Assembly: GCA_039621445.1 (NCBI GenBank)
Contig: CP154954.1
Location: forward strand, 38,897,816-38,961,815
Direction of reading: 5' to 3'
Source: Euglena gracilis
Lineage: Eukaryota
DNA: 64,000 bases
Shown here: one piece after another, positions 976-64,000 of the stretch
Layout of the letters: each line of letters opens with the position of its first letter
How positions within the stretch are numbered: position 1 is the first letter of the stretch
The notes under the pieces: generated by a model
What the model saw: the letters and a program-made list of their open reading frames with translations, nothing else
What the model was told of the DNA's origin: nothing
Databases searched by the model: none
Translations under genes and position numbers: made by a program

Positions 976-3900
976 ACCTGGGCTTTGGCGTGAATGGAGC
1001 AGCACACCTGGGCGAGGTGCTGAGGGGGAACAGCACCGTGCAGAAGCTCCGCATCTGGAGTGTGCCAGTGAAACGACACGCGTGCTCTGATTCGCATCCT
1101 GGGCCATCTTTTCTTTGGGTCATCCACTTAAGGTCCTTTCAAGCAAAAACAAGGGGAACATCCGAAAATACCAACGTCAAGTTTAGGGAGTTTGAAATTG
1201 GTCACATAATGGCCACCCCACACCACCATCATCTGCAGTTTCAGTGATGCGCTGATGAACCTATGCATTTTTTCCGTGCAGGTGCAATTGACCCCCAAAA
1301 CAGTGGCACAGCAAGTTGGACCACTGGACCGAAAAAAAATACCCTCATACTGGCCAAAAAATGCTGGGTTGGGTAAATCCCCCCTAATAATAAACCCACC
1401 CGGTTTATTATTTGGACACCTGAAGTCGGGGTCCGGGGGGGGGGGGGTTATTATTTGGGGGGGTTTATTATTTGGGAAAAAAATTCGAGGTCAAAATTCG
1501 ACCAGAAACCCCCTACACAGGCTCCAATGGTCACTTTTTTGGCACTTTTGGGCTTTTTTTGAAAATTGGGTGCTTTTTTGGCATATTTTCTGCACCAATT
1601 TGATCTATTTTTGTGATTTTTTGCAACATTTCTGCTAATTTTTTACTCTTTTTTTCTTTGCCCTCACACCTGCCAGAGGGGGGGGGTTATTATTTGGGCG
1701 GCCGATTATTATTTGGGCGACCTCAAGGGGGGTTTATTATTTGGGGGGGGGGTTATTATTTGGGGGGGGTTACGTTTTCGAGAAGGCATGCGAGAGATCC
1801 GTTAAAAAAAGCGGTGCAAAACACCAGAGGGAGAAAAACCTGACCCTTTTCTCGTACCCCTCTGCTCGTTTCAGATAACGGCATCGGCCCTGAGGGGGCC
1901 CGGCACCTGGCAGAGGTGCTGAAGGTGAATGCCACCCTGCAGGAGATCTATCTGGACCGTGTGCCCTCCCCGCCTTTTGCTGTTCTTCCCCTTTCTGTTG
2001 CTCGCTTTGAACTTTTTTTTTTAAAAAAGACTACCGCATTTCCTCAGGGACCCAGTCGAGGCAAATGCTGTCAATTTCTTGAAACTCCATTTTGCATCCA
2101 ACCTCCCTCAACCAAACGGCTCATCTAGGTGTATCACGAAGCTCACCGCTTACAAAAACCATTTCTTTGTTTCTGACCGCATCAGCAAACTCCACACCGA
2201 TGAATTTTTCATGTAATTTTTGTCTGCCAAATCTGTGTCATTTCACCCACTTTCCCCTATTTCCACATCGCCAAAGATCACCAATTTGGCACGCCAGAAG
2301 CTCCAGGTTGCGGTCATTTCTCTCTCCACCCCAAGAAATGTGCTGTTCTCCAGTGCTTGAGACTGCATTGGGGCATTTAAAGTGCAGTTTTGGCAGAGAG
2401 GTTATCCAGTCGGTGCACACAAAGCAACCCACCCCCGGGGGCCTCACCTCAGGGTCTGCCCCGGGGGTCCAGACCCGGCCAGGAATCCCGCCCCTCCCTT
2501 CCCTCTGTCCTCCGCCCCCCCCTCCTTCAGGCAACGACATTGGCCCCGAGGGGGCCCGGCGCCTGGCGGCCGCCCTGGAGCGGAACGTCACACTGCGGGA
2601 GATCCACCTGTATGGTGCGCCGCCCGCCAACGCTCTCTGTTTCTGGGTGGGGCTGCCAGGGTTGCCGTTCAGGCAGATGCGGGCACTTTTTTTTTTGTTG
2701 AAAAAGTTGCTTTTTTAGGCCATCATGCATTTAAAGTTGCTCGTTTGGTCTGAATGACGACGCTGAGGTGTGGTTGGGGACAGTGATTCCCCAGTCACAT
2801 ACGACATGATGCAGCTTGTGCGATGAGATAATGGCTGTTTCCCCAGTATTGTTTGTTGGGGGAAAGAGCCGAGGCCGAAACTAACAGAAAATCAATTCGA
2901 ACCGTTCATGTCTTTTTTTGAAGGCATTAAAGACACACCGTCATGAAGGCGCACATCGACTTTGGCGGGAGTGTCTCAGCCCAGCACCCATTGGCTAACA
3001 GCCTTAAATGGGAAAATTTGTGGCCTGAAATTTTTTGCCATTATCCATCGAGTGTTAATGCCATTGTGTGGTCAAGGTTGGGTTTTGTTTTTGTATTTTT
3101 TGGGGGGGTCCCAAAATCGGCCCAAAATTTTTGGGGGGGGTACCCAAAAATCAAAAAATTGGGTCTCCATTGACGATGAGAGAAAACCATGGAAAACAAT
3201 GGTCGACCACATGAAAAACACTGGCCCTTCCCATGAGTTGTTCCGAAGGTCATCATTTACGGCGCTGGGTCCGGGAGGACAAAAACATCGTTTCGGGCAA
3301 AAAATTTCCGATTTTTCCCGACTTTTTTGGCCCAAAACTGGCCGAAAACGGCTAAGTCAAAACAGGCCAAAACTGTACAAATTGGTCAAAATTAGCCGAA
3401 AAATGGCGATGACTCGGGTCAGTCTCCGGACGTTTCCTTTGATTCCCCACCATTTTCGAGAAATTTCAGAAAAATTTGAGAAGCGTCGCCCAGCAAGCTT
3501 TAATTGACGAGCTGCTTTCGAGGAAAACCTGTTTTTGAGTCGAAAATGAGCGTTTTCCCACCCCCGGGCACCCGTTTTTGGCCTGAACCATGGAGTTTGG
3601 GTCAAAAAAAACGGGTCAAAAAAGGCGGAAAAAATCGAAAAATTTTATTTGTTCTTTCGATGTTTTTTTGGCCTGCTGGCCTGCCGGAAACCCTGTTTTT
3701 GAGCCGAAAACGAGCGTTTTTCGACCCCCCAGCGCCCCGTTTTTGCCCAAACTCATGGAGTGGTGGTTGCGAAATCCGTGGCCTTGACAATGTGGTCACA
3801 AGGGACACGGTTGACAACCCCCTCAACAATGGCTTTGTGGGACAACAAACATTTGTATATTTGCCCTTTCCATGAGGAGGGCAAGTCTGGCAAATCTATT

Positions 3901-6900
3901 GAACTCCTGTCCACAGCTTTGTAGAATCTCTTGAAAGAAGCCACAAAGAAAGGGCTGTGTTGATGAGAAAAAAAATTCAAACAAACCCCCAAAGTACAAA
4001 TTTTGGGGGGTTTTTGGGGGGGTACCCCAAAGGCAAATTTTAGGGGGACCCAAAACCCAAAACCCAACCTTGGTGTCACATATGGCACAAAGTGGGGCCC
4101 CCATACCTAGGGTATGGGGGGGTATGGGGGGGTATGGGGGGGTATGGGGGTATGGGAAGGGTTTGGAGATGTTGTTGATGAGGTTTATGGCCCCTGGAAC
4201 AGTTGCATACATCGCGCGATTTGACCACAAAGCGCGATTTGACCACAAAGCACGATTTGGCCACAAAAAAAGATCGGTAGACAAGGATGAGGTTATTTTT
4301 TTGCCGGGGGGGGGGGTCCAGGGGGTTTTCGACTTTTTTTGACCCTTTTTTGGACCCAACCACCATGGGATTCGGGTCAAAAACGGGCCGCCGTCAGGTC
4401 GAAAACCGCTCATTTTCGGCTCAAAAACACGTTTTCCGGGTCTGGGAGGCTGAAAAACATGGTTTCGGATCAAAAAAAATTTCGGCCTTTTTTCGACTTT
4501 TTTGACCCGTTCTTGACCCAAATACCATGCATGGGTTTCGGACCAAAAACTGGGCGCCGGGGGGCCGACAGACACTCAATTTCGGCTTGTCCAGGAGGCC
4601 AAAAAAACATTCTTCCGGGCAAAAAGAATTTTTGGGGTATGGGGGGGTATGGGGGTATGGGGTGTGGGGTATGGGGGTATGGGGGGTATGGGGTATGGGG
4701 GCCCCATTTTGTGCCATGACTCCTTGGTGTGGTGATTCAATTGTCCAAAATTGCAATTTCTGGTTGTAAGGTCTTTTGTTGTTTCAGGGGTCAACATGTT
4801 GGTAGGAAGCAACATTTGTGGGTTCTGAGTGCTTGATCCGTCAGTTCAGGACACAGAGAGAGGCAGAGGGTGGTGGATGCGGGCGGCATAATCCCGGGTT
4901 AGGGATAGAATTGGGGTTAGAATGGGCTTTGGTATTTTGCTGAAAATCTGGCTGGGGGGTCTTATTTCCGGGGGGGGGGGGGTTCTCATTTTTTGTTGGG
5001 GGGGCTTTGGCTGGGAGTTTATGGCACTCTCCCAAACCGTGGAAACCCACCTTCCCAGGTCCAGCCAGCCGCCCTTTGGGTGGCTGGGCGGTAACAGATT
5101 TTTGGCACTGACGGCTGCAAAAACGGCCCAAAAACAGGTCAAAATGGGAGAAAATGGGTCGAAAAGGGGCTGTTTAGGGCAATTTCGGGGTCAAATTCAA
5201 AATGGCATTTTTTTTTGCAGACTTGGCAGTTATTGAGAGCTTTTTTTTTCAATTTCGATTTTTTGGGTACCCGGTGTGATGGGTCAGGCCTAGTTCCAGC
5301 CCAGGACCGGTCAGCCAGCAGCCAGCCGCAGCCAGCCATTTTCCAGCCAGCCCAGATTTTCCAGCCGCCCCCCCCCCGGGTCTTTGGGCGGCCCCCTGGG
5401 CCGCTCTTCCCCCCCCCTGGGTCCTGGGCGGACCCCGGGGGGTCGTTTAAAAACGCCCTGGTTTCCGCGTATTTTGACCATATATGTTTAGGGTCAATTT
5501 GGGTCGGGAGATTGATGTCTGCAATTTCCTGCAGTCTTCTGCAGTTTTCTAGAGTTTTCCACAATTTTTGTGCATTTTTCCCCTTTTCCGACATTCCCCG
5601 AATCGTTCACAAGTGAACGCAAGTATTCTTTTCGCTAATTTTCTAGCAAATTTTCCAATTTGGGCGAATTTGCAGGTGTTTGGCTTCCTTGTTGTTGTTT
5701 TTTTATTTCGATTCCTGCAATGAAATGATTTCTATTTAGAAAGGTTCTCCTCCTGGCGCAGATTTTTCCCTCGGACACCTTTTGCCCTGTGTATTAGTGT
5801 GTATCGTTGGTACCAGGCTGTTTTGGGGCATTTTGGGCCATTATCCACCACTTGGGAGCATTTTCCATCATTGTCTGTCAGAAATCCTAAATAGCAAAAC
5901 TGGTTTCCAGCCACACATCCACCATTCCTGCCTACTGATTCATCTCATATTCCTGCATATTTTAGCCAAGTGTTTTTTCGGGCCCCCATTTTGCACATTC
6001 TTTATGCCATGTCACAGTCAGCCATTATTGGGCTTTTTTTTATTTGTTTTCGTATTTTGGCCATCTCGGGCCATTATCATCGAGTGGTGGGCGTCCTTCC
6101 TCTGACCCTATATATGCAAAAAAAATTGGTGCCTAATCGCTCCTCTTTGCACTGCACCATTGATTCAGGAGCCGAGAGGCGGGTGGGAAGACCCCTTCCC
6201 TTTCCCTCCCTGTGTTGCTGCCGCCCGCAGGCAATGGCATCGGCCCCGAAGGCGCCCAGCACCTGGCGGCCCTCCTGAAGGTCACCACCACGCTACAGGA
6301 GATCTACCTGGGGTGTATGCCGCCCGGGTAGGATGCAGGGGGGGATATGCAAGTTGCATAATTGCATTTTTTTGCATTATAAAATTTTTTGAAAAGTCGC
6401 TTTTTTTTGCTTTTTTTGCTTTTTTTTGCACATTTTGTCTTTCTGATTTTTTTCCAGGCATCTGCACAGGCAAAGCAGGCAAAATTGCTCCACTCCCAGA
6501 CTACTGGAAGTTGCACACTACACGTCTTGGACCTAATTCACATTCAGCAGTTGCAAAATGAAATATAAGTGAATGCAATTAGGTGAACCACCATGTGATG
6601 TTGCAGTTTGCACCCACATTTACCTTTGGTGTTGCATTTTTGGAACAGGTCAAAATTTTCCAAGCCCTCTCCGGGTGGAAAAGTGCACAGCCCTGGGGAG
6701 CTCCTAAAGGAGTTTACATGCATCTTGCATTTTTTTTGCATTTTTTGCATTCTTTGCACTTTTTTTTTTGCGTTCCATACTTTGAGGAGCTTTGTTGCAT
6801 ATTCCCCCCCCCCTGCGGAATGGGGGTAAATCTATGAAATTATTTTCTTCGCTTTTAAAAAAAAGTTTTTATTCTGTTCATGTTGTCAATAATAACAGTA

Positions 6901-7470
6901 CCACAAATAGAGTCTTGTCTCGGTGGGGCATTTTTCTTTGTAAGATGCTACTGTCTTGAAATTGTGGTGCTCATAATTGCTGGGCTGATATCCTGTTTAG
7001 GGCTTGGCATTTTTTCCTTTGAGTGATGCACTGGTTGGCACTGGTTCACACCTGCTGAAATCTGCTAAATTTATTGTGTGATTTACCTTGAGGTGAAAAG
7101 ATTTTTTAGAGTTTCCAAATTTTCAGGGTTTTCGGATCTTTCAAATTTTCTTTCCTGTGTTTTCGCCCTCCCCGAAAATGACCAATACCTGTTGGGTGCC
7201 GGATGCATTTTGAAACCCAAAATGACTGCCGCCCCCTCCAGGCTGTCGGTGGGTGGCTTCCAGACTCTTGGGTCCAGCGGATTGAGAGGCTTCCACTCAC
7301 CTCCCCCAGGCAACAACATCGGGCCTGGTGGAATAGAGGACCTGGCGGCAGCCCTGCGGCAGAATGCAACCGTGCAGGAGATCTCCTTGGAAGGTATGCG
7401 TTGAATATTGGGATGGGTGGAATGAATGACCTAATATACTCCGGCTGAACAACACCAGAAGGTTTTTACA

Positions 7471-7517
<47 letters not shown>

Positions 7518-10500: not shown

Positions 10501-13500
10501 GGTAAAATGACGTGTTTATGGGCGCAAATGCGCGCACAAACAATTTTTTTTATGTGCGCATTTGCGCAAATGCGCACACCAACAAATGCGTTTGATGCGC
10601 GCATTTCCGCCCACCAAACACGTACGTTTTCCTTCCATGTTAAAAGACATCATAAGGACCACGAACTAGAAGGTTTAAAAACGTTATGGACGTGTGGGTG
10701 CGCGCAATTGCGCAAATAAACACACTTCTGTTGATGCGCGCATTTGCGCAAATGCGCGCATAAACACGTTAATAAACCGCTTCAAAATGATGTGTTTGTA
10801 GGGCCCTTAGAGCACATAAACAAAGTTTGTTTATTTGCGCAAATGCGCGCATCAAAACACATCAGTTGTGGGATACCATCTCCTGCTCCGTGACGGCTGG
10901 CGAACGCAACTCCTCACGCCAACCATTGATTTGCACCAAGAATACGTGGTGATGAAATTGGTGGTGAGAGGCAGTGTGGAGTGTTCACTGGAACACGGCA
11001 TGTGACTGGCCAAGATTTGCCTGCCTTGCGTGTGTACATGTGCACTGCTGTTCCCCGGCCCGAACGGCCTGTTGTTTTGGCGTCATGCGTTTGGCAATTA
11101 AATGTAATGAATTGATGACGTGCAAACGACCTGTGACTGTTGAACACCTTTTGTGCAACAAGACTGCGTTACAAGAAGTCAAAATTTGGCACCTGAAACA
11201 CCCGGGACGTGTCGGGCCGTAGTCCGTTTTATGGTTTTCTTTGCCATTTTTCCCTTGAAAATGTAAAAAACATCGGTTTTTGTGCACAATTTGGGGGGAG
11301 TGGGTCCCACCGCTTTGACACGACCAACCCAGTGGTGGTGGTTCACCACTTCCTTGTACCCAAAATAACGGGTGTTTGAGGGCCACCTCTCTCCAGCTGT
11401 TGGTTGCCATACACTGGCACCACGGCATCCCCCCAGTCTTACACCCCGGTGGCGGGGTATAACGTGGCCGCTGTGGTGGGTGTCGTTGCACCGGGGAGGT
11501 CGATGCCGGCCTGCTGGGTGCTGAAGCATCAGCAGCTGATGGGGCTGCAGCGGCGGAGCCGAAGCCGCAGGCCAGCCGCAGGGCGCTTGGGAAGCAAAAA
11601 TTGGTGCCGGTGGGCGTGCACCGTTACTGGGTGGCTGTGAACCCACCATCAAAAGATGCTATGTCTCCATCTTTTGTCGGGCCTGTCGATGGTCCAAAAA
11701 CGGCACCATAACCCCATATCCCGGAGGGGACGGTGTAGTCATTTGGGTTGAACCCACTCAGAAGCCACTAAGGGTGGCTGTAGGAGCGCCAAAGGAAGTC
11801 ACTTATTACTCCTCCATTGGTGGTTTACTTGCGCATTTGCGCGCATCACGTTGTTTTATGGACGCAAGTGCGCAAATAAAACAGATGTAAACTGAACCAT
11901 TTACATCTGTTTTATTTGCGCATTTGCGCCCACAAGCAACGTGATGCGCGCAAATGCGCAAGTAAACCACTTCCGCTGTCGGTGTTTGACGGCTGTGTTT
12001 CTGTCACACCGTTCTTCTTTGCGTTCATTTGCGCAAATGCGCGCATCAAACACAAAACATTTTTATGCGCGCATTTGCGCAGATGCGCGCATAAAAATGT
12101 TTTGTGTTTGATGCGCGCATCTGCGCCCATAAGCTTGCGCGTTGACAAACAGTGTGGCAAACCCACCAACTGGATGGCCCGTCAGTCCGTGCCGTCACGG
12201 CCTCTTTGTCACACCGTTTATCAGCAGCGTCAGTTCGTGGGTACCAAAGCCCAATCCTTGAAGGACATGTTTGTGTTTATTTGCGCAATTGCGCGCATCA
12301 ACATAAACATGTTGGTGCGCGCATTTGCGCGCATCAAACGTAATTTTGTCCTTCTAGCGTTGGGCTTCTTCTGCAGGGTTCTTTGCCACACCACTGGTTG
12401 TGTGGGTCCTGGGTATAAGCCGGGTGGGAGACACCCGTCCCCTTTATTCCCCTCATTCCCTGCGGACCCCGTTCCTTCCCCCTCTGCGCACCCCTTGCCC
12501 AACACCCCGTACTTACCTTCCTTCCCCTGCGTCCTTCCCGCCGGCTTGGTCACACCACACCCACACCCCCCGGACCTTCCTCCCTGCACTTCAACAAACA
12601 GCCCAAAAACACCACACCAAGGCGCCGCAAGCAACGCAGTCCGGCAAACACCCAGGATGCACACCGCCGGCAGCTCGGACACACCCGGGGACACAGTCGA
12701 AAGAAGCAATAGGGGCAGTAAAGGTCCCGTTCCTATGGTGCTTTTTTGCGTTTTTTTCAGGGTGGGCCGGCAGGGTCCCGTAGGTTTGGGCCCACAAAGT
12801 CCTTCCCGACACCCCCAAAAATCACTGTTTTTCGCCAAAGTCCCGGGGGTCTCCCAGCCAAAATCAGAATTTCGCTCGTTTTTTGCACTCTCTTGTCCAC
12901 GTGTTTTCAAACCCCCCTGACCTTCACAGCCGAAACAGAGCACAATCAAAAACATCGTAAATTTGCGCAAATGCGCGCATCAAACGAAAAAAGCTTAAGT
13001 GCGAATTAGGCCGCCTAAGGTCCTGTGACTCCACAATTCACGGTGCATTTCTCGTGGTCACAATTGCCTGCTTTTGTTCGCCTCTCCTCCCCTGCCCAAC
13101 ACACTCTTTCGCCTTTCGGTGGCGCGTGTCAGACAACGGCCTTGGTGTTGACGGAGCCCAACACCTGGCAGCTGCCCTGAAGGAGAATACCACGCTGCTG
13201 GAGATACAGCTTTCCAGTATGCCTTTCGAAATAGACACACACACACACACGTATATGCGCACCCTCGGTTTTCCTCGAGGCCATTTTGGCCGTCCCCATC
13301 CAACCCAGAGCAAGTTCTACATTTTCGATTTCTGGGTGTATGGGAGTATTTATGGGTGTTTCATCTGGGCAGGGGGGATGACGGGTCATTTAAGAGGGGC
13401 ACCGCCGCAGGTTGGACCCGGGGGGGGGGCGAATGGCTCTACCGTGGTTTTCTTTGAGACCTCCACCTCGGAAGGGCGGTCCATCCAGCCAGTGGGAGAA

Positions 13501-16500
13501 GTCCCAGAGAACGCCACATTTGGCCGTTTTGTGCCCCGTCCCCTCCAGTGAAGAGAATTTGCCCAGAGGGAGGATGCACCGCTCTATCATGAACCGGTCC
13601 ACCTGATGCTCAGCTGAAGAGATCCGCATTTTCCGGTGGCTATTTTGGTTTAAGTTTGGGGGAATGAGAAGAGTCAGGCTGGATCCTGGAGTTGTGTTCC
13701 CGGTTTCAAAAAGTTTGGGATGAACACGGACATGAATATTAGGCTGAATTTCATGCCAAATTTCCATCCAAATTCAGTGTTTCTTCAGGCCTGAACTTCT
13801 CTCAACACTACCCCTGCCCCTGACCCTGAGCATAGATTCACAAAACACCTGTGACCTCTCCCCCCCAGGAGGGGGCGGTGCCCCCCCTTCCCCGGGGGGG
13901 TGGGCACCATGGGTCAGGTTTTTGCCCATGTCCCGGCCGGAGACCAGGCCGGAAAAAATTTTCAGCGTTTTTTTCGGCCGGTTTTGGCTGGATTTTGGAT
14001 GGGTGGGTGGGTGGTTGACCCCCCGGGGGGGGGGGGTTGTGGGTGAGTGGGTTTTCAAAAAAGTGGGTGGGTTGCTTTGGGCCTGGGAAAAGTCAAACCC
14101 TTTGATTTTTCCAGTCAAACCCTTTGCTTTTTCAGAGGCGTTGCAAAATAGTGATGCCAAAGTATTTGACAGGGGGGAGCATGAAAACCAAGGGAAACAC
14201 GGGCCGACGTGCAAGCACTTATGAAATGACTGGGTGTGACCAGGCGCGACTGGCATAACTGGCTATTTTTCACCACTTTAGCCATTTTTTTTTGGCATTT
14301 TTGTCCCTTTTGGCCCGTTTTGGCCACTTTTAGCAACTGTGGGCCACTGACCATTTTTGCCCACGTTTGCCCACGTTTGTAAGGCTTTTTTTGGCCATTT
14401 TTTGGTCCACCAAATGGCAAAGAAGGTCGCTTTTTGCTGCTTTTGCTTGCTTTTGTACATTTTTAACATTTGTAATATATTTCTTGCAGGTTTTTGACAA
14501 TTTTTTAGCAACTTTTGGCCACCTTTGGACCATTTTTGGTCAGTTTTTGGCCATTTCCCCCCCTATTTTTGAAATCGAAATCAGCAACAAGTGGCCAAAA
14601 GAAGACAAAAGCAACAAAAGAGGCCAAAAGCAATTGAAAGCAGCAAAAAGTAGCCAAAAGCCATCAAAGGTAGCAACGAGTGGCCAAAAGCGTCAAAAGA
14701 AGCAAAAGGTAGCCAAAAGCAGTTGAAAGCAGCAAAAAAAGTGACCAAAAGTGGCCAAAAAGCAGTGGGCAATAGTGGACAAAAAAGACAGCCAAGACAG
14801 CCAAGATGGCCAAAAGCGGCCTCAAACTGGCCAAAAAGCAGCAGAAGCAGCCTACAGTGGGCAAAAGTGGCCAAAGGCGGCAAAAGTGAGCAAAGAAGGC
14901 CAAATTTGGCCAAAAGCGACCCAAAAGCAACCAAGAGATACAAAAAAGCAACAAAAAGCAACCAAAAGTGGCCAAAGACCACTAGTAGCAGCCAGAAGTG
15001 GGCAAACGTGCCAAAAAAAATCTTTTAAAGTTGGGGTGACCGGGATTTCTGTTGGCGTGACTGGGCGTGACTGGGTCTGACTGTGTCTGGGACCCTAGGT
15101 GACCACAGGTGCTTGCCGACGTGCAGGGGCCCAATTGTGTAGAGGGAAGGGGGGGGGGGCGTCTCCGCCGCCGGGTTGCATTCGGTCCCGACCGGGGGGA
15201 AGGAGCCGCCGCCTTTTCCCGCCTCGCCCCCCACTGCCCCGTGCCCGGCCGCAGCCAACAACTTCGGCCCCGAGGGGGCCCACCACCTGGCGGGGGCCCT
15301 GCGAGAGAACGCCACCCTGCAGGGCATCTGGTTGGCCTGTGTGTGCCCTGCCTTGCTGGGTGGGGGGCCCGTGAGCATCCCGAGCAGCCCCAGGGCGAGT
15401 GTGGTGGGCGGAGTGGCGGGGCGGAGGGACACACATGCCTTCGGTTCGGGGGGGGGGGGCGTCCCCCAAGAGTTGAGTCATTGGTGACAACTGTGGTTCA
15501 ATTCCGTGCCCGAGCGCTGCCGTTGCACGGCCCAGCCCAGCGGGGGGGGGGGTCCCTGCCCTGCCCTCTGCCTGCCGCCGCAGTCAACGCCATCGGGACC
15601 CAAGGGGCCCGGCACCTGGCGGCGGCCCTGGACGTGAACACCGCGCTGCAGGAGGTCTACCTGGGCGGTGTGCCCCGGCCAACGGATTGGGGGTTGGCTG
15701 CAGTGTGCGGCTGGCTCACCGCAGCCTCCATGACCTGGCACCTGGGTGGGCGTCGCTCTCCAGGCATTCGGGTGTTGAAACCAGGCTTCTCGTGAGGTTG
15801 GGATGGGCCAACCCCCCCCCCCCCCCGGGGTCCTGCACAGCGGGCCTGGAAGTTGGACCAGCCGAAAGTTTTTGTGCTAACGAAATTTTTCTCCAGCACA
15901 AATTTTTTCGTCCGAAATAGGTGGCCCCCCGGGGGGGTCCCACACCGACTTGGGTCTGTGGGTGGAGAACCCCCTCCCAATGGGGGGGGGGCAAAAAAGA
16001 AGTTTGGGGGCGTACTGTTGGTAACCGGTGGGGCGGTGGGGAGGGGGGGGGGAGGTCAGGTTTTCTGGTTGCAAGCACACCCGGCCAAAAAAGTGTTGGG
16101 GTCAGGCTTCTGCCTAAGGGTTCGTACAGTGGGGGAAACTACTCGTACAGCAAAGGGGTCATAACTACTTGTACACCCCCCAAGGAAAAATGTGAAGCAC
16201 GACGTAGCAAGCATCCACGTCGCATTATTGCCACAGTGTGCAGGCATTATGGGCCACTGAGCGTTCAGTAGCTGGTGGGGCCTCCACGGGCTGCGATAAG
16301 CGCCTGCATGCAGCTTGGCAGCGAGGCATACAAACTGTGCACATAGCTTGCAGGCACAGCTGCAAAGGCCTCTTGTAGAGCGCTCCACAATTGTTCCCGT
16401 CCAGTGAACACGGCTCCATCAAGATGCCTCAGAACCCAAGGCCACAGATGTTCGATCGGGTTCATGTCTGGAGGCATCGGCGGCCAGACTCCAGCGTTGT

Positions 16501-19153
16501 GACGCGCCACCCGCTGGCGATGCAACCACCAAGATGTGCTGGTTGCCCGATGCGCCGGCGCTCTTTCTTGCTAAAATGTCCAGCCACGACCCCTGCACAA
16601 TAGGGCGGAGTGGCAGCAGGTACTCAGGTGTCCCTGGGGCTGCACACCCTGGCTTGATGAAGGTCTTGGCGCAATGAAGGATGGTTCTGTACTCAACTGT
16701 GTTGACACCATCGAAGACAGATTGCGCCGTTGGACTTCATGTTGGCCCAGATCATCAGGGATTCCGGCTTCTGGACAGTCGGGACGGTGTACTTTGCGGT
16801 GTACCTCGACTCCCGAACGAGTTTCCAGCACCTGAAAACAGAAAAGAACCAATGCCAGACACAGTTACCGTCCAAACCATGGTGACAGAGCGATCTAGAC
16901 GAGCAAGGCTGAAGAAACATACCTCACTTGCCCCCCAGGCCTCACCCAGAAGTTCTTTTGGTCCGATTTCGACCAGTCGGACACCCGATGCTTCCTGGCG
17001 TACTCCAGCCTCTGGCGCTTGCTCGTCTGGGACAGCAGTGGCTTGCGCATGGCCGGAACACTGCGGAACCCCAGCCGACGCAACATCCGCTGCACGGGTG
17101 ACTTTGAAGGGCGCCCTGGTATCTGCAAATGCATACAGCAACACAGACAAGCCCTGGAAGGATTCGTGCACCTGTACCACAGCTCCAGGGGGTCGGGTGG
17201 TCAATGCTGCATGTCGGCGTGCAACTGCTCGGCCAGCCGGGTCGCCCCCCCAGAAAGGATGTTTGTTGGCGCGGCGGAACAGCGCGTTTTTGTACCTGAG
17301 CAGGCGTAAACACGTTGACTCACCCGTCAAAAAGGTGGGAAATCGCACCTCTGTGATGCCACAGGGAGACGCCCACCACCAGTCCATGCGGCGATTTGCC
17401 CTGAATCCCGAATCTGCTTGACAATGGGCTGCACGGTGCTGCGGCCGAGACGTTCGGCAGTGGCGATGGCCCCATAGCTGGAGCCACCACAAAAGGAAGC
17501 CCAAATCCAGGCCCGCTGAGCATCACGCTCAGGGCCGGTTCGCTTGGGTGGCATTGTGCAGAAATGCTCTGCGGACACGCAGGAGCACTTTTTTTGTTAC
17601 CATGCCACCAAATGGGACAGGCAACATGGCAACACGCACGTCGTACGGACCTCCGGTGGATCTTTCACATTTTTCCTTGGGGGGTGTACGAGTAGTTATG
17701 ACCCCTTTGCTGTACGAGTAGTTTTGACCCCTACTGTACACCCCCCCCCCCCGTAGGGGGCTGGACTGCAGCTGGTCCAGCCAGTGGAAATCCTTGTTGA
17801 CTTTCTCCTCCGCTTCTCCTCCGGGGGAGGGGTCTGCTAGCAAGGCTAGCTTGTGGGAAAATCCCCCCCAGTGACTGGCGCAAAGTGCGAAGTGCCGTAA
17901 TTGTTTTGACCCAAAACCTGCCAAAAATGACGCTTTTTTGGGATTTTTGGGATTTTTTTTGAGCAACTCAAACAAAAACAAGTCAAAAACTTTTTGCAAC
18001 GTGGCACGCAGAATATTTTCCTTCCTGGGGTAGGGGGCGGCAGCTACTGGCTCTTTTTCTATTGGCCAGCAAAATGACGAGTTTGTGGGCCCCGAGGACT
18101 TGTAAGCAAAAGCCTGGCTGGGGTCCTCAAAATGGCCATTTTCAAGGAGAATTTCGACTGGGTCAGAGCAGCTGGGACTCAAATCAACCCCCAACCTTGC
18201 TTTTTTTTTCGTATTTGGGGGGTTGCTAAAATGAATTTGACCCCCGAAGAATGAAATTTTGACGTTTTAGCAAGCAGTGCAGTACACCCTCAAAGGCTTG
18301 TCTTTTCTGCCTTTTTTTTGCGGCTGGAGGTGTCTAAACAAAAGCAGCCCAAGTTTTCCAAGGCTATTAGAATTTATTTGTCCCCCAAACCAATGTTAAG
18401 GCTTCATTTCAAGGCCCTTGGGTAGAGACAATTACCTTTTTTTTTAGTGTCTCCAAATTTCATTGCCACCAATTCAGTCGAAGTACCATTCAGCCATTAC
18501 CACAGCCTCTACCACACCAGTATTCTTTGTGCATTCCCTCGAATTCCTTGATGCGTGAATGTGTATGGTATTTTCTAGGGGCTTCATATTTGGGTGGGGT
18601 TTTTTGTATGGGTGTCAAAATCAAACCCCTTGAAGGGGTTTTGTTTTCTGGGGGGGGGGGGGCTTCATATTTGGGGGATTTGTTAAATTCAGATCCAGAG
18701 ACAAATCCAATTTCTTTACCAGAACCAGAACTCCAGGATTTCTTTAATAAATCCAGAGATTTGTTAAATAAATTGGTCACAGCCACCCTCATAGCAGAGG
18801 CATCAAGGCATCAAGGCATCAAAAAATTACTGAGCAAGCAGGAAAGTGTTCTTGCTGTTGAAAACCATATTATTTGAAAGACACCATTAGAAAAGCCTGT
18901 GTTTTTTTTAAAAAAAAACGTTCAAGATATTTCCCGAGAACAATGCGCAAATTTTTAAAAAGCAGTGGGAATTGGCTCATTTACAACCAACCCCATCGAC
19001 ATATATTCGACCACCCGATGTCCGAGCGACCACCCTGTCGGTGAAAGGAGTTTTGGGCACTTCCTACCCTTTCCCCAGACAACGGGATCGACCGACAACT
19101 GTTGGATTTGATCAAGGAACAGGTTCGGATGAATCGCAACCCAGGACTCCGAC
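976..19153 (+). CDS. Ribonuclease-inhibitor-like (NLRC3-type) leucine-rich repeat protein, partial, multi-exon; 5' end not identified (probably outside window), 3' end uncertain
   Basis: Eight exons of exactly 84 bp, each bounded by AG and GT(G/A)(T/C)G with phase-1 introns: 976-1059, 1875-1958, 2531-2614, 6231-6314, 7310-7393, 13133-13216, 15255-15338, 15584-15667. Each encodes one 28-aa repeat, e.g. NGIGPEGARHLAEVLKVNATLQEIYLD and NDIGPEGARRLAAALERNVTLREIHLY. A 75-bp phase-1 capping exon 19079-19153 follows (DNGIDRQLLDLIKEQVRMNRNPGLR). The joined frame has no stops. Confidence 0.92.
1380..1770. repeat. Dispersed repeat with ttattatttggggg motifs; second copy at ~22315-22690
   Basis: Same-orientation similar copies (ggtttattatttggaca..gaagtcggggtcc, ttttctgcaccaat, cacacctgcc.gagggggg). 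Confidence 0.8.
3280..4725. repeat. Repeat-derived region with duplicated blocks and (TATGGGGGG)n arrays
   Basis: Recurrent ttttgag.cgaaaa.gagcgtttt blocks; two tatgggggg arrays (~4100-4155, ~4634-4700) bounded by inverted ends (atggcacaaagtggggccccc / gggggccccattttgtgccat). Confidence 0.55.
10026..13014. mobile_element. ~3-kb non-autonomous TIR element rich in TTTGCGCAAA/ATGCGCGCAT palindromes
   Basis: About 65-bp imperfect TIRs (gcggccgaattcgcacttaagctttttt..gatgcgcgcatttgcgcaaatttacgat at 10026; reverse complement ending 13014). Many internal palindromic motifs and a ~150-bp hairpin at 11820-11970. No transposase recognised and no clear TSD. Confidence 0.7.
12455..12862. repeat. Dispersed ~400-bp repeat, inverted copy at ~46229-46640
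   Basis: Highly similar sequence on the opposite strand (e.g. caaggcgccgcaagcaacgcagtccggcaaacacccagga). The translations in ORFs 12230-12970(-) and 45992-46624(+) are nearly identical over this stretch. Confidence 0.85.
14255..15020. repeat. Degenerate foldback-like low-complexity repeat (TTTTGGCCA half facing TGGCCAAAA half)
   Basis: A T-rich tttggcca-type tract switches strand at ~14570 to an A-rich tggccaaaa-type tract. Confidence 0.6.
16127..17736 (-). mobile_element. Tc1/mariner (IS630-Tc1-mariner) DNA transposon, DD37E spacing, decayed
   Basis: TA at 16125-16126 and 17737-17738. TIRs of about 72 bp: cagtggggg-aaactactcgtacagcaaaggggtcataactac..ccccccaaggaaaaatgtgaa, with the reverse complement at ~17664-17736. 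Lies in an intron of the LRR gene. Confidence 0.93.
16265..17554 (-). pseudogene. Tc1-family transposase pseudogene with four short GT-AG introns
   Basis: Minus-strand segments: HTH-like MPPKRTG..GSSYGAIATAERLGRSTVQPIVKQ; RRLGFRSVPAMRKPLLSQTSKRQRLEYARKH; TVPTVQKPESLMIWA; F*QERAPAH; WPPMPPDMNPIEHLW..MQALIAARGGPTSY. Introns 17296-17348, 17123-17171, 16832-16922, 16593-16647. Frameshifts, an in-frame TAG and D-to-E at the second catalytic position indicate inactivity. Confidence 0.85.
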
Positions 19154-22100
19154 GTGTGTTTCCCCTGCCCCTGAGTGATTTTGGCCGTCGCCGAGGCTTT
19201 ATCGGCAGCTTGCACGTGGATGTCCTTGGCAACCATTTGCATTCCACCCCCCCCCCCCCAATGGACACATTGAAGGCTCTCTCCAGTGGACATCAAGGTG
19301 ACGCTTTGATATCCATGTGTGGACACCGAAAAAAGAATATTTTTTGTGAGGGGACACCGGAAGAATTTTTATGTGTTACACAAAAAAAATTGTGTTTCAT
19401 TTATGAACACCAAAGTTTTTTTTGTGGTTTTGTGGACACCAACAAGACCACAACAGTTCTTCTGTTGCAGCAAGAACTTGCTGCAACAAATTCTTGCAGC
19501 AAGAATTTGTTGCCGCAAATTCTTGCCGCAACAAGAATTTGCGGCAAATTCTTGTTGCCGCAAAACAACAAGAATTTTGCGGCTCCCAACTTTATGTGAA
19601 CCACAAAAAATGGACAACTGAGCCCTGATCGTCCCTGGGCAGCGGTCCACCCCTTGTTCACAACAAGAAGGGCAAGGTCTTGCATCAGAATTTTTGTCTT
19701 TGTCACAGAGGCAAAACAGGAGCGGTTGAAAGCGCAACAGCAGAGGTGTGTCAGCGACGTTTCCCCAAATCTAATGCTGGCGTTAAAGGTCATTTTTGCC
19801 TCGTGTTGACAACAGTCAAAACGTTCGTTCCCAACCAGAGGCTATACGGCTGTGATGGAGCCCTGACAATGCAATGCATTGTGCAGTTTATGGCTTGACC
19901 CAGCTTGCACGGCGGCATTGGCCCGGTGGTGCGGCTAGTCAAGCTAACCACCCCATTTTTCACCGAGAAAAAAGTGTCTGCTTATTTCGGAACTGATTGG
20001 TCTTTTCATGGGAAAGCTTCTGCTTGTTTCATTGTTCTCCGTTGGACGCTCATGAGGTGCTGTTCAGGTCCAGCAAGGGTCGGGAGGTCTTTTGTGTTCC
20101 TCAGGGTAGCCGGTTGACAGAAGCCGGCCCTGACAATGACAACTAACTCCCGCCTGTTGACCGGCCCCAACCCCTGACCTCCTTCCCCACACTGCAGTGT
20201 TCCCCTGCTGCTCGCAGCCTCAGCTGTTTGAACTTTTGGCATCGGACCAAACAAAATGACGACGTTATCGTCCCTTCTTTTCTCACACTGCCTGCCAGGC
20301 ACGTGCAAATCGCCAGCCGCCTCAAACAGGGGTTCCCCCGAATCCCCCCCAGGCAGTTCATGGGATAAGGGGGGGGGGTTCGACCACCCTGGGATCCCCC
20401 TGGAGTCAAAATGTTTTCTTCTCTGTTTGTGATGCTGAAAATCAAAACCCCCCAGCGCAAGGTAATGGGTGGGTTTCACTGGGATTGGGTGGGAGTAATG
20501 CAGGTCCTAAAGGTCGATCAATCATTGGCATTCTCCAGAACAGGCAGATCATTCAGGCACCAGCCAAAAGCCTGCCCAATGGCCCTGGGTCGGGAGGGGG
20601 ATCCACCTGTGTCCTCTCACTGCTGTTTCGTAATATGTTGATTTTTGAAGGGGGAATGAATGACATAAAAGCTTCAAAAAATGTAAAACTTAAGGGAGAA
20701 ACAAAAAACGAGCAATCCTCGCTATTATCCAAAATTTGTGCAATGAAAGAATGTTGAATGAAAACTTTGAAGGTGCAGGAAACTGCGCAGAAAAGTGAGA
20801 AATGAGCAAAATGTGGTGGCGTAACGCCGGGTGGCCATATTCACCGGATTTGGGTGTACTCCTCCCACTTGGAGAGGGGGTGGACCCAACATCTCACCAA
20901 TCACCTCGGAATCGAAGGGCGGACCGTGCATCACGGAGAGACCACCTCCCGACACGTTTGTGTTGGGTGGGGCAATGGGTGTTGGGTGCGGCGCTGATGA
21001 GGGTGGTTCAGCATTCACTGCTGATTGATTAATTTCTTGATTATTAAATATGAAAACAGAATCCAAATCAAGAATTTGTGGTTGTTGGTCATTGTAATAA
21101 ATTACTTGGTTGAAAACTTCTAATGGAGTGGAGTGAACCCCAGGTATAACCTGAGCACAACCGTGTTAAATGAATTCATCTTTGGAAATCGATTTGGAGA
21201 TAATGCGGGGTAATATTGGGTGAATTTCAAGACAACAAAAATGTAATCCAAAAGAAATCATTGGAATTGCGGGGGGTCGGTACGTCGTAGGTCAGTCAAG
21301 GCCTGCCCAACCTCCGGGCTGCAAAAAAATTCCAGGGTTTTCAGCCGATTCTGGTTTGGTTTTGGGTGGGTGGGAGGGTTGATTCCCGAGGTGGGGGGTC
21401 GTGCATGGGTGGTTTTTTTTCCGAAAAAATGGGCGGGTGGTTTGGACCCAGGAAAAAGTGCCCTGAGCACAGTATTCTACGTCGCCATTGTATGTCTATC
21501 ACGATTCCATGTCACCACCAAACCCCCCCCAATTTTTGGTTCACAAATTTTCATCAAGGACCATCAGTAGGATTTTACACAAAGTCTGCCCCAAAAGGTG
21601 GGGTCCGGTGGTATGTGTATATTTCATCGCCCCCCACCCGTCTCTTCTCAGCCGGGGAAAGCGATTTTAGATGGACGCCTCCCCCAGTGGCCAGAGTTCT
21701 TTACCCGCCGAAGGCCACCGGTGACTCCCTCCCCAACATGTGGTGACTGGCAGGTTGAATTTCAAGGCGTGGCCGACCCCATCCTCGGCACATGCCTCGG
21801 AAGGCAAACCCCCTGATTTGCCCCTGTGGGGCAGGGTATTAAGTGAGCGGTGGTTTTGCAGGGGGGGGGGTCAGGGGTCCCTGGCCACTCACCACACAAA
21901 CTGGGCCAGAAGCCAGAAGCGAATCAGTGCCAGCCATAAACAGACAAGAAGCCTTAGCGCAACTAAGGGGGGGAGGGGGGGTCCAGACCACCTCCCTCCC
22001 TCCTTGGACCGGGGGGGGGGGGTCCGGGACCACCCCTTTATTATTATATTTGGCTTTATATTTGGGGGGGGTACCACAGCACCAGCACAACACAGACACA

Positions 22101-24761
22101 CATTGTCAAACCATCAAAACATTATTTTTTCCTCTACCCATCCCGAATAACAGCGTTCATTTGCTGCACATATTTGGGTTTGGGTTGAATTTTATATGTG
22201 GGGTTGTAATATGTGGTTTGCTTTATGTCGAAAATTCGGCCGTTCAAAACGCCCCCGGGAACCCCCAAAATTCTTCAAGCGCAAAGCGCCGGATTAGAAG
22301 ATATATGGTGTAAACCCCCAAATAATAACCCCCTCGGTTTATTATTTGGACAATCGAAGTCGGGGTCCAGGGGGGGGGGTTATTATTTGGGGGGGGGTTA
22401 TTATTTGGGCAAAATTACCGAAGTCGAAAATCGATCCAAAAACCCCTCCACAGGCCCCAATAGTCGCTTTTTTGGCATTTTTGGAATTTTTTAAAAAATG
22501 GGTGCTTTTTTGACATATTTTCTGCACCAATCTTATCCATTTTTATTTTTTTTGCAACATTTCTGCTAATTTTTGACTCTTTTTTTTCCTTTGCCTTCAC
22601 ACCTGCCGGAGGGGGGGTTTATTATTTGGGCGGCTGCAGTCGGTCCTCAAGGGGGAGTTTATTATTTGGGGGGTTATTATTTGGGGGGGTTATATTGTTT
22701 TGTGTGTATGTTATTTTTTTTAAAAAAAAGAAAACCGCGTGAAAACGCAATTTTTGGGCCTTTTTCAAGGCCCAAAGTAATTTTCCGCGCAAAGCGCCAG
22801 AAATTTTTTTTGCACGGGGGGTGGTCCGACCCCCCCCCCCCCGGGGGATCCAGACCCCCCTCCCCGCTCACTTAATACCCTTGGGGGGGGGCAGTGGGCA
22901 CTCTGCCATGGCTCTCTGGCGCCGACTCGGAGACCCCTCCCCCCAGGTGATCAAAGTCATCCAACTCAAATCCATCCCAGGCGATCTCTAACGTTGAAAG
23001 AACCCGGAATGGAATTTTCGCAGCTGGAGATGGCCTTTCTGGGTGCCGACGTCGTTGGGACTGGTTGCTAAATGCGATTGGAGGATTGGACTGGATTGCC
23101 CTGGAGGAATTATCCCGGGTGGTGTCACATGTAGTTGCCTCAGGCATTGTTGAAGGTGCCACTGTCACTGCCACTGTCCAGTTGCCTTCTGGGCGGTGTG
23201 GGGGACCTGCCGTTTCCCCCGCAGGGAGCGACTGCAGGCGAGCACCGACCGGCTGGAGCGCCAGGCTGCGACCCTTGACCAGTGGCGCCCTTGGGTGGAC
23301 TGCCCGGGTTGGTCGGATGCGCAGGGGTCCGCGACTCCGCCCAACACTGCATCAACAGGACAAGCCAGTGCCTGAGCAGCTGCGGTGCTGGCAAGGGAAA
23401 AAGAAGGTTGATTGAAGGTTGATTAAGAGACCTTGGTCTGATCTGTCCCTGGGGTGGGCATGCAGGTTAGGGTTCCCGCTGGAAACACTCTGCCACTACG
23501 CGATGAACTTTTTGAAACTGTGGACTGCTGGCATGACCTCCATGGAGCACACCACCAACCGGGAAATACATAGGATAACTTGGTGGCGGGGGAAATTTCC
23601 AGTCGCCACAAGAGATCCAGAGTCAGCTCCTGAGTCTTTGGGAGGTATTCAGCCAACGGGATCATTTAAGGAGGAAACATGCTGGGAAACCATTGCAATC
23701 ATGTGTGTCTCCACCTCATGGTGCTGAGAAAGTCATTGGCCTCAAAAGAATTCACCCAGGTTGTCGAGTGAAATCCAGTTGGGTGACTCTCAGGCAGAGC
23801 CAAACTCGGTGCATCTGAACAATATTCAACCCACGTTGTCAAATATTTTGGGTATCTCTGCAGTTTTCGCTGCAGACAAAAGCCATTTTGGGGTTTGTTA
23901 TTCCCCCTTCAGGTCCAGACCATGTCACCGCTGAATGATGGTTCGACCAGGCTTGTGCTTAGTCGGGTGCCTACCCCACGGGGGGGGGGTGCTAGGGGCA
24001 GGCACCCCATAGCACCCGATCCACCCCCCCCTCGGGGGGGGGGGTAGGGTTTTGGGGGGTGCCTGCCCCTAGCAGGCACTCCCCTCCGACCCCGGCGCCA
24101 AAGGCGCCGGGGGCCCGGAAAAGGCCATTTTCAATGAAAAATTTCTAGGTCCCCCCCCCCCGGACCCCTACCCCCCCCGGGGGGTGTGCCTGCTAGGGCA
24201 GGCACCCTATAGCACCCCCCCCTCCCCCCCCCCGGTCGGTAAGTACAAGCATGGGTCCGACCCACCGGGTGACCACCAGTGGCTTTGGTGGGTTGTGGAT
24301 CCTCCGACTCAAAGTGGCCAACCCTGGGTTCCGGCAAACAAGTGGCCTCATCCAGACCACCGCCAAGGCCAGCCGCATTTTTTTTTGGGGATGGGGGGGG
24401 TCGCATGATAGCCAGGCCAACCCCCTCGGGCAGTTCACCCGTAAGCCGCTGCCCACAGGGATGCCCATCGGCTGGTGGCGGAGATGGAGAGCCTCGGGTG
24501 TGGTCGGCCATTGGTGCACCCATCCCTTTCGCTCGCCTTCGGGGGGGAGTGAACCCCCCACCCCCATCACGCCTTCCCCCGTTGCCTTCCAAGGACCCCG
24601 GCAAGCTGCACCAATTGCTTGCCCACAGGACGTTTTTTGGAGGGGATGAAATAAAGGCCTTGAAAAAAAGCCACTGGCAAACCTTCGCATACATATATAT
24701 GTATGTATATATATATGTATATATGTACACACACATATTTATGTATATATGTATATATATA

Positions 24762-24808
<47 letters not shown>

Positions 24809-26093: not shown

Positions 26094-26561
26094 CGAAGAC
26101 ACCTCCCAGCGATTGCGCACACAACGCGAGGGCATGGAAAAGACGCTGGGCACCCTGCGGGAGACGGACCAGGAGGTGTGCGCAAACCATTATGCATTCA
26201 TTTGGTGGTCATTTGTTTCGAGTGGAACGAAGGCCCCCCAAGCGTGGACCGCAACAATGCTTCAAACGAACAAACAACCTCAGAAACACTCCCGGAATAA
26301 TTTTGACGTCCTCTGCCCGGTCATATGGAAGCCACCATCTGTCTAGGTAATAGCACCATGATATACGATAATTTGACACATTTCGCCTTCGTGCAAACTT
26401 GTGAATAAAAAATATTAAGAAAAACACTAAATAAAATACTACATTTACGAGATGAAATGGACAGTGCCCCCCAGGGGCTTCCATCTCTTCCAGCTTCGGT
26501 GTCATCGCAGGTGACCAGAGCGCAGAAGATCCTCGGAGCGTTGCGGCGATGGCCTTTTTGA
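26094..26561 (+). CDS. Divergent duplicate of the Vti1 SNARE-motif exons lacking a transmembrane anchor (possible 3' end of the LRR gene)
   Basis: Exon 26094-26175 (AG/GT, 82 bp) encodes EDTSQRLRTQREGMEKTLGTLRETDQE, 22/27 identical to and the same length as Vti1 exon 32703-32784. Exon 26511-26561 encodes VTRAQKILGALRRWPF-stop, aligning to MTRTRKILSMIQRR of Vti1 exon 6. Confidence 0.75.
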
Positions 26562-28119: not shown

Positions 28120-28144
28120 GTTTTTTCCCGCCCTCCCCCCGCAG
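28120..28144 (+). promoter_or_regulatory. Putative spliced-leader trans-splice acceptor of the Vti1 gene
   Basis: Pyrimidine tract ttttttcccgccctcccccc followed by GCAG, ending 8 nt before the ATG at 28153. Euglenozoan mRNAs are SL trans-spliced (established); use of this site is inferred. Confidence 0.55.
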
Positions 28145-28152
28145 CCCCCGCC

Positions 28153-35847: not shown

Positions 35848-35879
<32 letters not shown>

Positions 35880-61609: not shown

Positions 61610-61640
<31 letters not shown>

Positions 61641-63233: not shown

Positions 63234-63264
<31 letters not shown>

Positions 63265-63927: not shown

Positions 63928-64000
63928 GTCCGGGACCACACCGTGGCTTGCAGTCCCCCTCCCCCCCTCAGTGTGTGTGTGTGGGTGGGTGGTCGGGTGG

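Follow-up and report, generated by a model that had tools for sequence, protein, structure and literature searches.

Tomosyn and amisyn are soluble proteins in which a C-terminal R-SNARE-like motif follows a WD40 or PH-like head, and they form non-fusogenic complexes. Vti1 proteins, in contrast, combine an N-terminal Habc domain (PF05008) with a Qb SNARE motif (PF12352) and a transmembrane anchor. Anchor-less SNAREs of another kind are the SynPM copies of Leishmania, which the accessible text of PMC5399786 presents as lineage-specific kinetoplastid SNARE paralogues. The SNARE described here resembles them in being a recent duplicate without a transmembrane domain, whereas the SynPM copies, as that text describes them, are Qa SNAREs, otherwise full length and unfused to other genes (PMC5399786). 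It lies in a 64,000-nt stretch of Euglena gracilis DNA (CP154954.1, GCA_039621445.1; hereafter the window, whose positions are the coordinates used throughout), between a leucine-rich repeat (LRR) gene and an intact VTI1.

The LRR gene, which may start upstream of position 976, consists of eight 28-residue units and a cap, with the consensus N-x-I-G..G-A..L-A..L:

976..1059, + strand: first LRR exon in the window, 84 nt, phase 1-1, 28-residue repeat of the RI type; AG acceptor, GTGTGC donor, open frame
1875..1958, + strand: LRR exon, 84 nt, phase 1-1, by repeat alignment; LRR_6 E 0.16, below the Pfam cut-off
2531..2614, + strand: LRR exon, 84 nt, phase 1-1, by repeat alignment
6231..6314, + strand: LRR exon, 84 nt, phase 1-1, by repeat alignment
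7310..7393, + strand: LRR exon, 84 nt, phase 1-1, by repeat alignment
13133..13216, + strand: LRR exon, 84 nt, phase 1-1, by repeat alignment
15255..15338, + strand: LRR exon, 84 nt, phase 1-1, by repeat alignment
15584..15667, + strand: LRR exon, 84 nt, phase 1-1, by repeat alignment
19079..19153, + strand: C-terminal cap exon of the LRR gene, 75 nt; one split-codon base before a GTGTGT donor

The repeat profile matches NOD2, LRRC34 and a ribonuclease-inhibitor-like protein (E from 8.3e-6 to 4e-3), RI-type proteins that likewise have 28-residue repeats; Pfam LRR_6 reached no better than E 0.16, in the single exon 1875-1958. Going by molecule names, none of the matched RI-type chains is described with a SNARE motif. 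The preliminary description of this stretch had noted that the gene lacks a stop after its cap exon, and the frame is indeed open past 19153, to 19599.

The VTI1 gene is organized as follows:

28153..34716, + strand: intact VTI1 parent gene, colinear with the orthologues P0003 and P0004 (PF05008 + PF12352)
28153-28348, 28682-28762, 31704-31767 and 32093-32185, + strand: VTI1 exons 1-4
32703-32784, 33816-33932 and 34609 to about 34716, + strand: VTI1 exons 5-7

Judged by sequence comparison, the SNARE copy is a partial tandem duplicate of this gene, with a span from intron 3 to mid-exon 6. By blastn, tblastn and a profile, four pieces align in colinear order with VTI1 exons 4-6; the profile was built from two foreign Vti1 orthologues to the exclusion of the window's VTI1. 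A putative nonconventional intron separates the first two:

23225..23276, + strand: E4a', duplicated first half of VTI1 exon 4
23277..24456, + strand: putative nonconventional intron splitting exon 4', 1180 bp; GAC-CAG ... CTG-CCCAC, then a purine
24457..24497, + strand: E4b', duplicated second half of VTI1 exon 4, SNARE layers -6 to -3
26094..26175, + strand: E5', duplicate of VTI1 exon 5 with the zero-layer glutamine, covering layers -2 to +4
26511..26561, + strand: E6', duplicate of the beginning of VTI1 exon 6, covering layers +5 to +8

The earlier proposal of two duplicated Vti1 exons was right for both pieces and incomplete, the two halves of exon 4 having been overlooked. E5' is a true copy of the VTI1 exon at 32703-32784 by all three methods (blastn 79% across 92 nt with E 1.5e-11; tblastn 81% across 27 aa with E 7.6e-12; i-Evalue 7.4e-8 with the profile from the two foreign orthologues only). 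Both halves of exon 4 were also detected, E4a' by tblastn (E 3.1e-4, match 23226-23288), profile (i-Evalue 9.8e-4) and blastn (87% over 31 nt) and E4b' by blastn (85% over 40 nt, E 2e-5) and tblastn (E 0.005, match 24457-24498). E6' alone is not significant (tblastn E 2.2, profile i-Evalue 15); its probable homology is credible only through position, phase and acceptor. The pieces contain no stop and no indel, and every conventional splice site is kept. In a matrix scoring of 466 GT and 371 AG sites, with a C-rich acceptor matrix, the acceptors of the copy rank 16 (that of E4a'), 36 and 45 of 371, and its donors 1 (that of E5') and 12 (that of E4b', where GG precedes GTGTGG) of 466. A processed pseudogene was rejected, parent intron positions 4 and 5 still being present in the copy with their phases. 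Three residues are common to the copy and the window's VTI1 only, when both outgroups are compared, which indicates a lineage-specific duplication. With the E5' exon as query, an exact scan of metagenome contigs gave 0 matches, and the E5' and LRR cap frames found none among proteins of 80-2000 / 91-2000 residues, in a collection lacking this organism's own proteins, where a VTI1 exon 1 control reached at best 83% identity.

Taken jointly, the four pieces make up a complete Qb SNARE motif, from layer -7 to layer +8. Compared with Vti1, the copy keeps the whole motif and all 16 heptad layers, 12/16 being identical and 4/16 conservative, and the zero layer is retained, as previously claimed, by the glutamine in E5'. 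Single-exon frames are too short for Pfam: none of 14 rose above the cut-off, genuine VTI1 exons included, and the true VTI1 exon 4 scored 13.9 bits against V-SNARE_C, whose cut-off is 27.1. Unlike Vti1, the copy is devoid of both a Habc domain and a transmembrane anchor, again in agreement with the preliminary description. A search of the whole window for a Habc remnant (profile positions 1-113) gave a best non-self i-Evalue of 12 or worse, and tblastn with VTI1 exons 1-3 returned only noise apart from these exons themselves. At the other end, E6' terminates at a TGA (26559-26561) 3 codons past layer +8. Homology to VTI1 stops at about 26553, 2-3 codons past that layer, and downstream of this position no anchor-coding remnant was found, the alignment score being reached by shuffles in 0.96 and 0.83 of runs and tblastn giving no match. 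That homology ends inside exon 6 suggests that the duplicated segment apparently never had an anchor.

The heptad register holds only if exon 4' is split at the borders of a nonconventional intron. In Euglena, such introns obey a code that consists of a 3-nt spacer followed by CAG at the 5' end, CTG followed by a 5-nt spacer at the 3' end, a purine as the first exon base, and pairing of the ends (PMC12501133). The ends of 23277-24456 match the published code exactly (GAC-CAG ... CTG-CCCAC|A), and they form a duplex of -27.8 kcal/mol, compared with -15.9 (sd 3.2) for shuffled sequences, a value reached by 0/300 of the shuffles; with 30-nt ends, z was -6.2 (0/200 shuffles). Removal at these borders restores gap-free colinearity with VTI1. 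The same rule also fixes the borders of VTI1 introns 1 and 6, which are nonconventional and whose borders are set independently by the orthologue proteins. A conventional GT-AG split from 23282 to 24458 would be in frame; it was rejected, as it adds one residue, puts layer -7 off register and uses a donor that ranks 95/466. With its full code and strong end pairing the putative 1180-bp intron is like the described euglenid nonconventional introns (PMC12501133). The parent exon 4 has no intron at the corresponding place, so that the intron was either gained in the copy or lost in VTI1; elsewhere in the window, blastn with the intron sequence gave 0 matches.

Partial duplicates are mostly born dead. 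This usual fate is what speaks for a dead-on-arrival fragment, never translated, whose likeness to VTI1 would be a remnant of neutral decay. The substitution counts argue against it: over 70 codons, the copy and VTI1 show 31.3 synonymous differences for 53.2 sites and 32.7 nonsynonymous differences for 156.8 sites, which gives an omega of 0.21, with dN biased downward since these 70 codons, a small sample, were picked by similarity. Had the copy evolved neutrally since it arose, so low a nonsynonymous count together with so high a synonymous one would have had a joint probability of ≤ 0.001 under JC (4000 runs x 9 branch lengths) and ≤ 0.004 with a kappa of 3 (3000 runs x 7 branch lengths), at all branch lengths tried. 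Similarity, moreover, ends a few bases from exon borders, and stops and indels are absent, so that a fragment dead from the outset is very improbable. The preliminary description had suggested purifying selection from 10 synonymous codon changes and 5 residue changes in E5', a count that is exact. The suggestion is upheld by the pairwise dN/dS and the improbability of neutrality, with the amendment that constraint on the copy is relaxed yet present: an ABC estimate of omega for the copy's branch was 0.41, with a range of 0.16-0.84 (572/30000 runs accepted).

That estimate, with its upper bound, also fits a mixture of constrained and neutral time. The copy could therefore be a recently dead relic, long translated as a paralogue or within a fusion, which has since lost protein expression and begins to decay. 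Several features are in keeping with such a fate. The copy evolves far faster than VTI1: of 21 residue changes, 17 are assigned to its branch and 0 to that of VTI1, these 17 being all the assignable ones. GC3 is lowered (0.77-0.85 for the copy, 0.92-1.00 for VTI1), and E6', the final piece, has diverged most, 7/13 of its compared codons changing the residue relative to the window's VTI1 in a region that is nearly invariant across the three Vti1 sequences compared. Habc and anchor are both absent, and anchor loss may have been the inactivating lesion. By contrast, none of the four pieces has a stop, an indel or a lost splice dinucleotide, while the nonconventional code is intact. After 0.2 neutral substitutions/site only 35% of simulated copies were stop-free, and equal neutral time would, by my own estimate, usually strike one of the ~16 signal bases. 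Changes in the heptad layers, furthermore, are conservative only. A relic is conceivable on balance, although I consider it unlikely.

The connection of the copy to the LRR gene would be made by one further exon:

19709..19745, + strand: E3', adaptor exon of 37 nt; takes 1 base from the cap and passes 2 bases (AG) on; no ATG

At the predicted junctions, the cap (19079-19153), 19709-19745 and 23225-23276 join in frame. The donor of E3' (19746) ranks 2/466, and its acceptor is weak (rank 87/371). The preliminary description had proposed four linker exons and had found a phase clash between 19745 and the next of them, at 21652. The clash is gone once the 23225 exon is the next partner: 19745, which ends in AG, fits the G at 23225, and this first base of E4a' completes the same AG|G as in the parent exon. 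This in-frame route from the cap is simpler than the one first proposed. Among the proposed linkers, only 19709-19745 was kept. The one at 21652-21720 is unneeded once 19745 joins 23225. Those at 25450-25511 and 25878-25912 are in frame arithmetically, as had been stated, but their donors are poor (ranks 390 and 394 of 466) and they would interrupt the homologous junction of exon 4' with exon 5'. The chance probability of an in-frame chain is roughly 0.15-0.2 by my own estimate. Between 19747 and 23224, nine AG sites outscore the 23225 acceptor, and splicing to some of these would truncate the LRR protein. Without use of the 19746 donor, the frame runs into a stop at 19807-19809, which implies that the LRR gene is not dependent on the SNARE exons. 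The ends of the putative 19746-23224 intron do not pair (z = -0.9), and conventional control introns are likewise unpaired.

A rival to this connection is a separate small gene, with its own spliced-leader mRNA and an unrecognised ATG exon, whose anchor-less and Habc-less Vti1-like product would have no relation to the LRR gene. Translation is implied by the selection signal, and the 23225 acceptor has a C-rich tract and a CAG, which outrons use also (PMC11170887). Euglena's abundant nonconventional introns could, in addition, conceal exons from a GT-AG scan (PMC12501133); a scan of GC3 for such hidden exons gave too many false positives for use. Start codons are the difficulty with this proposal. 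No ATG is present in 19709-19745 or 23225-23276, or upstream in their frames, and the copy itself offers no start codon ahead of layer -4: the first ATG that its exons contain lies out of frame and the first in-frame one would lose layers -7 to -5. Donor phase fits for only three ATG candidates, 20751-20794, which is short and AT-rich, 20975-20985, which amounts to just 3 codons, and 21405-21610, which is repeat-like. A gene of this sort is accordingly improbable.

The copied exons may instead be spliced onto the LRR transcript, giving an LRR-SNARE fusion, a possibility that I favor while granting it somewhat less than an even chance. The partial VTI1 duplicate would have come to lie downstream of the final LRR exon, and the predicted splice chain would run 19079-19153 -> 19709-19745 -> 23225-23276 -> 24457-24497 -> 26094-26175 -> 26511-26561, with every junction compatible in frame and the 1180-bp nonconventional intron excised between 23276 and 24457. 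Such a transcript would encode an LRR protein of the RI type, extended by a tail of ~87 residues that is made of a short helical linker and then the whole Vti1-type Qb SNARE motif, with neither Habc nor anchor. If translated, this predicted tail would place the protein beside tomosyn and amisyn, which also carry a large non-SNARE head and an anchor-less C-terminal SNARE motif, and by analogy it might likewise act by competition. Unlike theirs, its motif is of the Qb class (Q at layer 0) and its head an LRR domain, and there is no common descent.

The SNARE helix would presumably bind the partners of Vti1, namely endosomal Qa, Qc and R SNAREs, and the bound tail would either block fusion or carry an LRR ligand to such complexes. 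A decoy role is plausible by analogy, since anchor-less SNAREs are competitive inhibitors in fusion assays, as reported in the accessible text of PMC3940976. That the locus encodes a live fusion of this kind, an LRR head with a Qb helix that enters endosomal Qa/Qc/R bundles in an inhibitory or partner-delivering manner, is a tentative proposal. Titles and abstract openings of the literature surveyed contained no description of an LRR domain combined with a Vti1 SNARE.

Should the fusion prove false, the locus would be an ordinary, slowly decaying partial duplicate. The junctions are explicit and editing with Cas9 RNPs, as described in the accessible literature, is available in Euglena, which makes the case directly testable. 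If true, it would provide a clean case of a new gene arising through partial duplication and exon capture, and an example of a young exon that harbours a nonconventional intron and stays intact. The protein itself would represent a decoy or adaptor SNARE of the Q type that evolved naturally on an LRR scaffold.

The duplicated Vti1 exons downstream of the LRR gene are genuine, and the case for them is stronger than first stated. Their parent, VTI1, an intact Qb SNARE gene, was modelled with two foreign orthologue proteins, P0003 (83% identity to VTI1 exon 1; carries PF05008 and PF12352) and P0004 (74% identity).

28153-28348, 28682-28762, 31704-31767 and 32093-32185, + strand, VTI1 exons 1 to 4
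32703-32784, 33816-33932 and 34609 to about 34716, + strand, VTI1 exons 5 to 7
23225-23276, + strand, copy piece E4a'
24457-24497, + strand, copy piece E4b'
26094-26175, + strand, copy piece E5'
26511-26561, + strand, copy piece E6'

The preliminary description had limited the copy to 26094-26175 and 26511-26561; both exons stand, while the two-exon limit was wrong, the pieces at 23225 and 24457 being copied as well. Comparison of 19000-27600 with 27601-36000 by blastn gave three colinear matches, confined to exons (23221-23251 with 32089-32119, 24463-24502 with 32151-32190, and 26091-26180 with 32700-32789). Exon-wise tblastn matched 23226-23288 (E 3.1e-4), 24457-24498 (E 0.005), 26095-26175 (E 7.6e-12) and 26511-26549 (E 2.2, alone not significant). 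An HMM built from P0003 and P0004 only, scored on all 2322 stop-to-stop frames from both strands of the window, recovered all VTI1 exons, E5' (i-Evalue 7.4e-8) and E4a' (9.8e-4), with weak scores for E4b' (13) and E6' (15); its Habc part matched none of these frames besides VTI1 itself. Similarity stops a few bases from the exon borders, the introns being unalignable by blastn, and homology ends 2-3 codons past heptad layer +8 of the SNARE motif, 3' of which no anchor remnant is detectable by alignment. A TA/TG microsatellite (24700-24830) lies between E4b' and E5'. Within VTI1, intron 2 holds two C-rich CCCCACA-like low-complexity blocks of about 1 kb with a repeated unit between them (29500-31170; GC 0.67, GC skew -0.61), and intron 4 GT-rich (GGGTGT-like) repeats (32200-32370). 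At 35160-35258 lies an open frame that ends ...LGARFRLRG and is similar to the P0004 C-terminal tail; VTI1 may extend into one more 3' exon past 34716. The window ends in a long (TATG)n microsatellite (60230-64000; GC about 0.32, GC skew +0.55 to +0.60).

The sequence of the window has the character of euglenid nuclear DNA: donors of conventional introns are GTGTG and their acceptors a C-rich tract then CAG, as described for E. gracilis in an excerpt of PMC11170887, and three introns follow the nonconventional code as excerpted from PMC12501133. Two of these, VTI1 introns 1 (28349-28681) and 6 (33933-34608), lack GT-AG borders and provide a positive control of the rule within the window. Their borders, set independently by colinearity with the orthologue proteins, are GGG-CAG...CTG-CAAGC before an A and GGG-CGG...CCG-GGGCC before an A, that is, the canonical CAG-CTG and the published variant CGG-CCG motifs (PMC12501133, same excerpt). 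The third is the 1180 bp (23277-24456) that keep the halves of copied exon 4 apart: it starts GAC-CAG, ends CTG-CCCAC and is followed by a purine, the complete published code, and its borders restore exact VTI1 colinearity. Its 25-nt ends pair at -27.8 kcal/mol versus -15.9 (sd 3.2) for shuffles, none of 300 reaching that value, and its 30-nt ends at -42.8 versus -21.4 (z = -6.2; 0 of 200 shuffles). With 30-nt ends, VTI1 introns 1 and 6 give z = -1.8 and -2.1, and eight conventional introns from VTI1 and the LRR gene, taken as controls, -1.5 to +1.3. A GT-AG reading from 23282 to 24458 was rejected: it is in frame, but adds a residue, breaks the upstream heptad register and uses a donor ranking 95th of 466 GT sites. 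Since nonconventional introns are thought likely to descend from transposons (PMC11170887, background section), the insertion is no proof of function; it would mean only that the copy's reading frame is unbroken.

The selection test covers only 70 aligned codons, of which 26 are identical to VTI1, 23 synonymous and 21 residue-changing. By Nei-Gojobori, changes amount to 31.3 of 53.2 synonymous and 32.7 of 156.8 nonsynonymous sites, hence dS about 1.16, omega 0.21 and dN 0.24, the last biased downward by picking the pieces on similarity. When the copy was simulated as neutral from birth, with only synonymous substitutions in VTI1, the joint probability of nonsynonymous changes at or below and synonymous changes at or above those observed was at most 0.001 (JC) or 0.004 (kappa 3); a fragment dead on arrival is disfavoured and very improbable. 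An ABC estimate puts omega on the copy's branch at 0.41 (range 0.16-0.84). When P0003 and P0004 serve as outgroups, the 21 residue changes divide into 17 on the copy, none on VTI1 and 4 that are ambiguous, and the copy and VTI1 share three derived residues. Each of the 16 layers is retained, 12 of them identical and four conservatively changed (V to L at +3, M to V at +5, T to A at +6, I to L at +8), and the copy has no stops, no indels and intact splice dinucleotides throughout. Conservation is poor in E6', and GC3 is 0.77-0.85 in the copy versus 0.92-1.00 in VTI1. That the copy is a recently dead relic is a serious, if rather unlikely, alternative.

The LRR gene has eight exons of exactly 84 nt, one 28-residue repeat per exon, all phase 1-1, and a cap.

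976-1059, 1875-1958, 2531-2614 and 6231-6314, + strand, LRR exons, 84 nt each
7310-7393, 13133-13216, 15255-15338 and 15584-15667, + strand, LRR exons, 84 nt each
19079-19153, + strand, LRR cap exon, 75 nt, after the eighth 84-nt exon

A PDB search with its nine-unit profile hits the LRR part of NOD2, LRRC34 and a ribonuclease-inhibitor-like protein (best E 8.3e-6), so the gene is of RI type; Pfam gives single exons LRR_6 at E 0.16 and nothing else. One of its introns holds, on the minus strand (16265-17500), a transposase frame remnant which I take to be Tc1/mariner-like from a DMNPIEHLW-type motif. A single base of a split codon closes the cap exon ahead of GTGTGT; unspliced, the exon's frame is open to 19599, and short palindromic GCAAGAATTTGTTGC-like hairpin repeats cluster within that frame at 19440-19590, shortly past the exon.

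No ATG occurs in the adaptor exon (19709-19745), in 23225-23276 or in their upstream open frames; within the copied exons the earliest ATG is in the wrong frame, and the first in-frame one lies at layer -4. The few other candidates that have both an ATG and a donor in the right phase do not convince, and it is improbable that the SNARE copy forms a small gene of its own. In contrast to those candidates, the LRR gene fits the copy exons in phase. After the cap exon the phase is 1, the 37-nt adaptor turns this into phase 2 and ends AG, and 23225 starts with G, like the parental exon 3/4 junction; the two join in frame, and the phase mismatch once claimed beyond 19745 disappears. Among 466 donors, 19746 ranks second and that of E5' first. 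Against a fusion, the 19709 acceptor ranks only 87th of 371 AG sites, nine AG sites in 19747-23224 outscore the 23225 acceptor, and read-through at the 19746 donor meets a stop at 19807-19809. Splicing of the LRR gene to the SNARE copy is plausible, if unproven, and is put forward tentatively.

Literature searches, judged from titles and the beginnings of abstracts, turned up no protein combining LRR and Qb-SNARE. SNAREs without an anchor are used as competitive inhibitors (excerpt of PMC3940976), and Leishmania has anchor-less SNARE paralogues (excerpt of PMC5399786). By analogy to these, we infer that an LRR-Qb-SNARE protein might act as a decoy SNARE.
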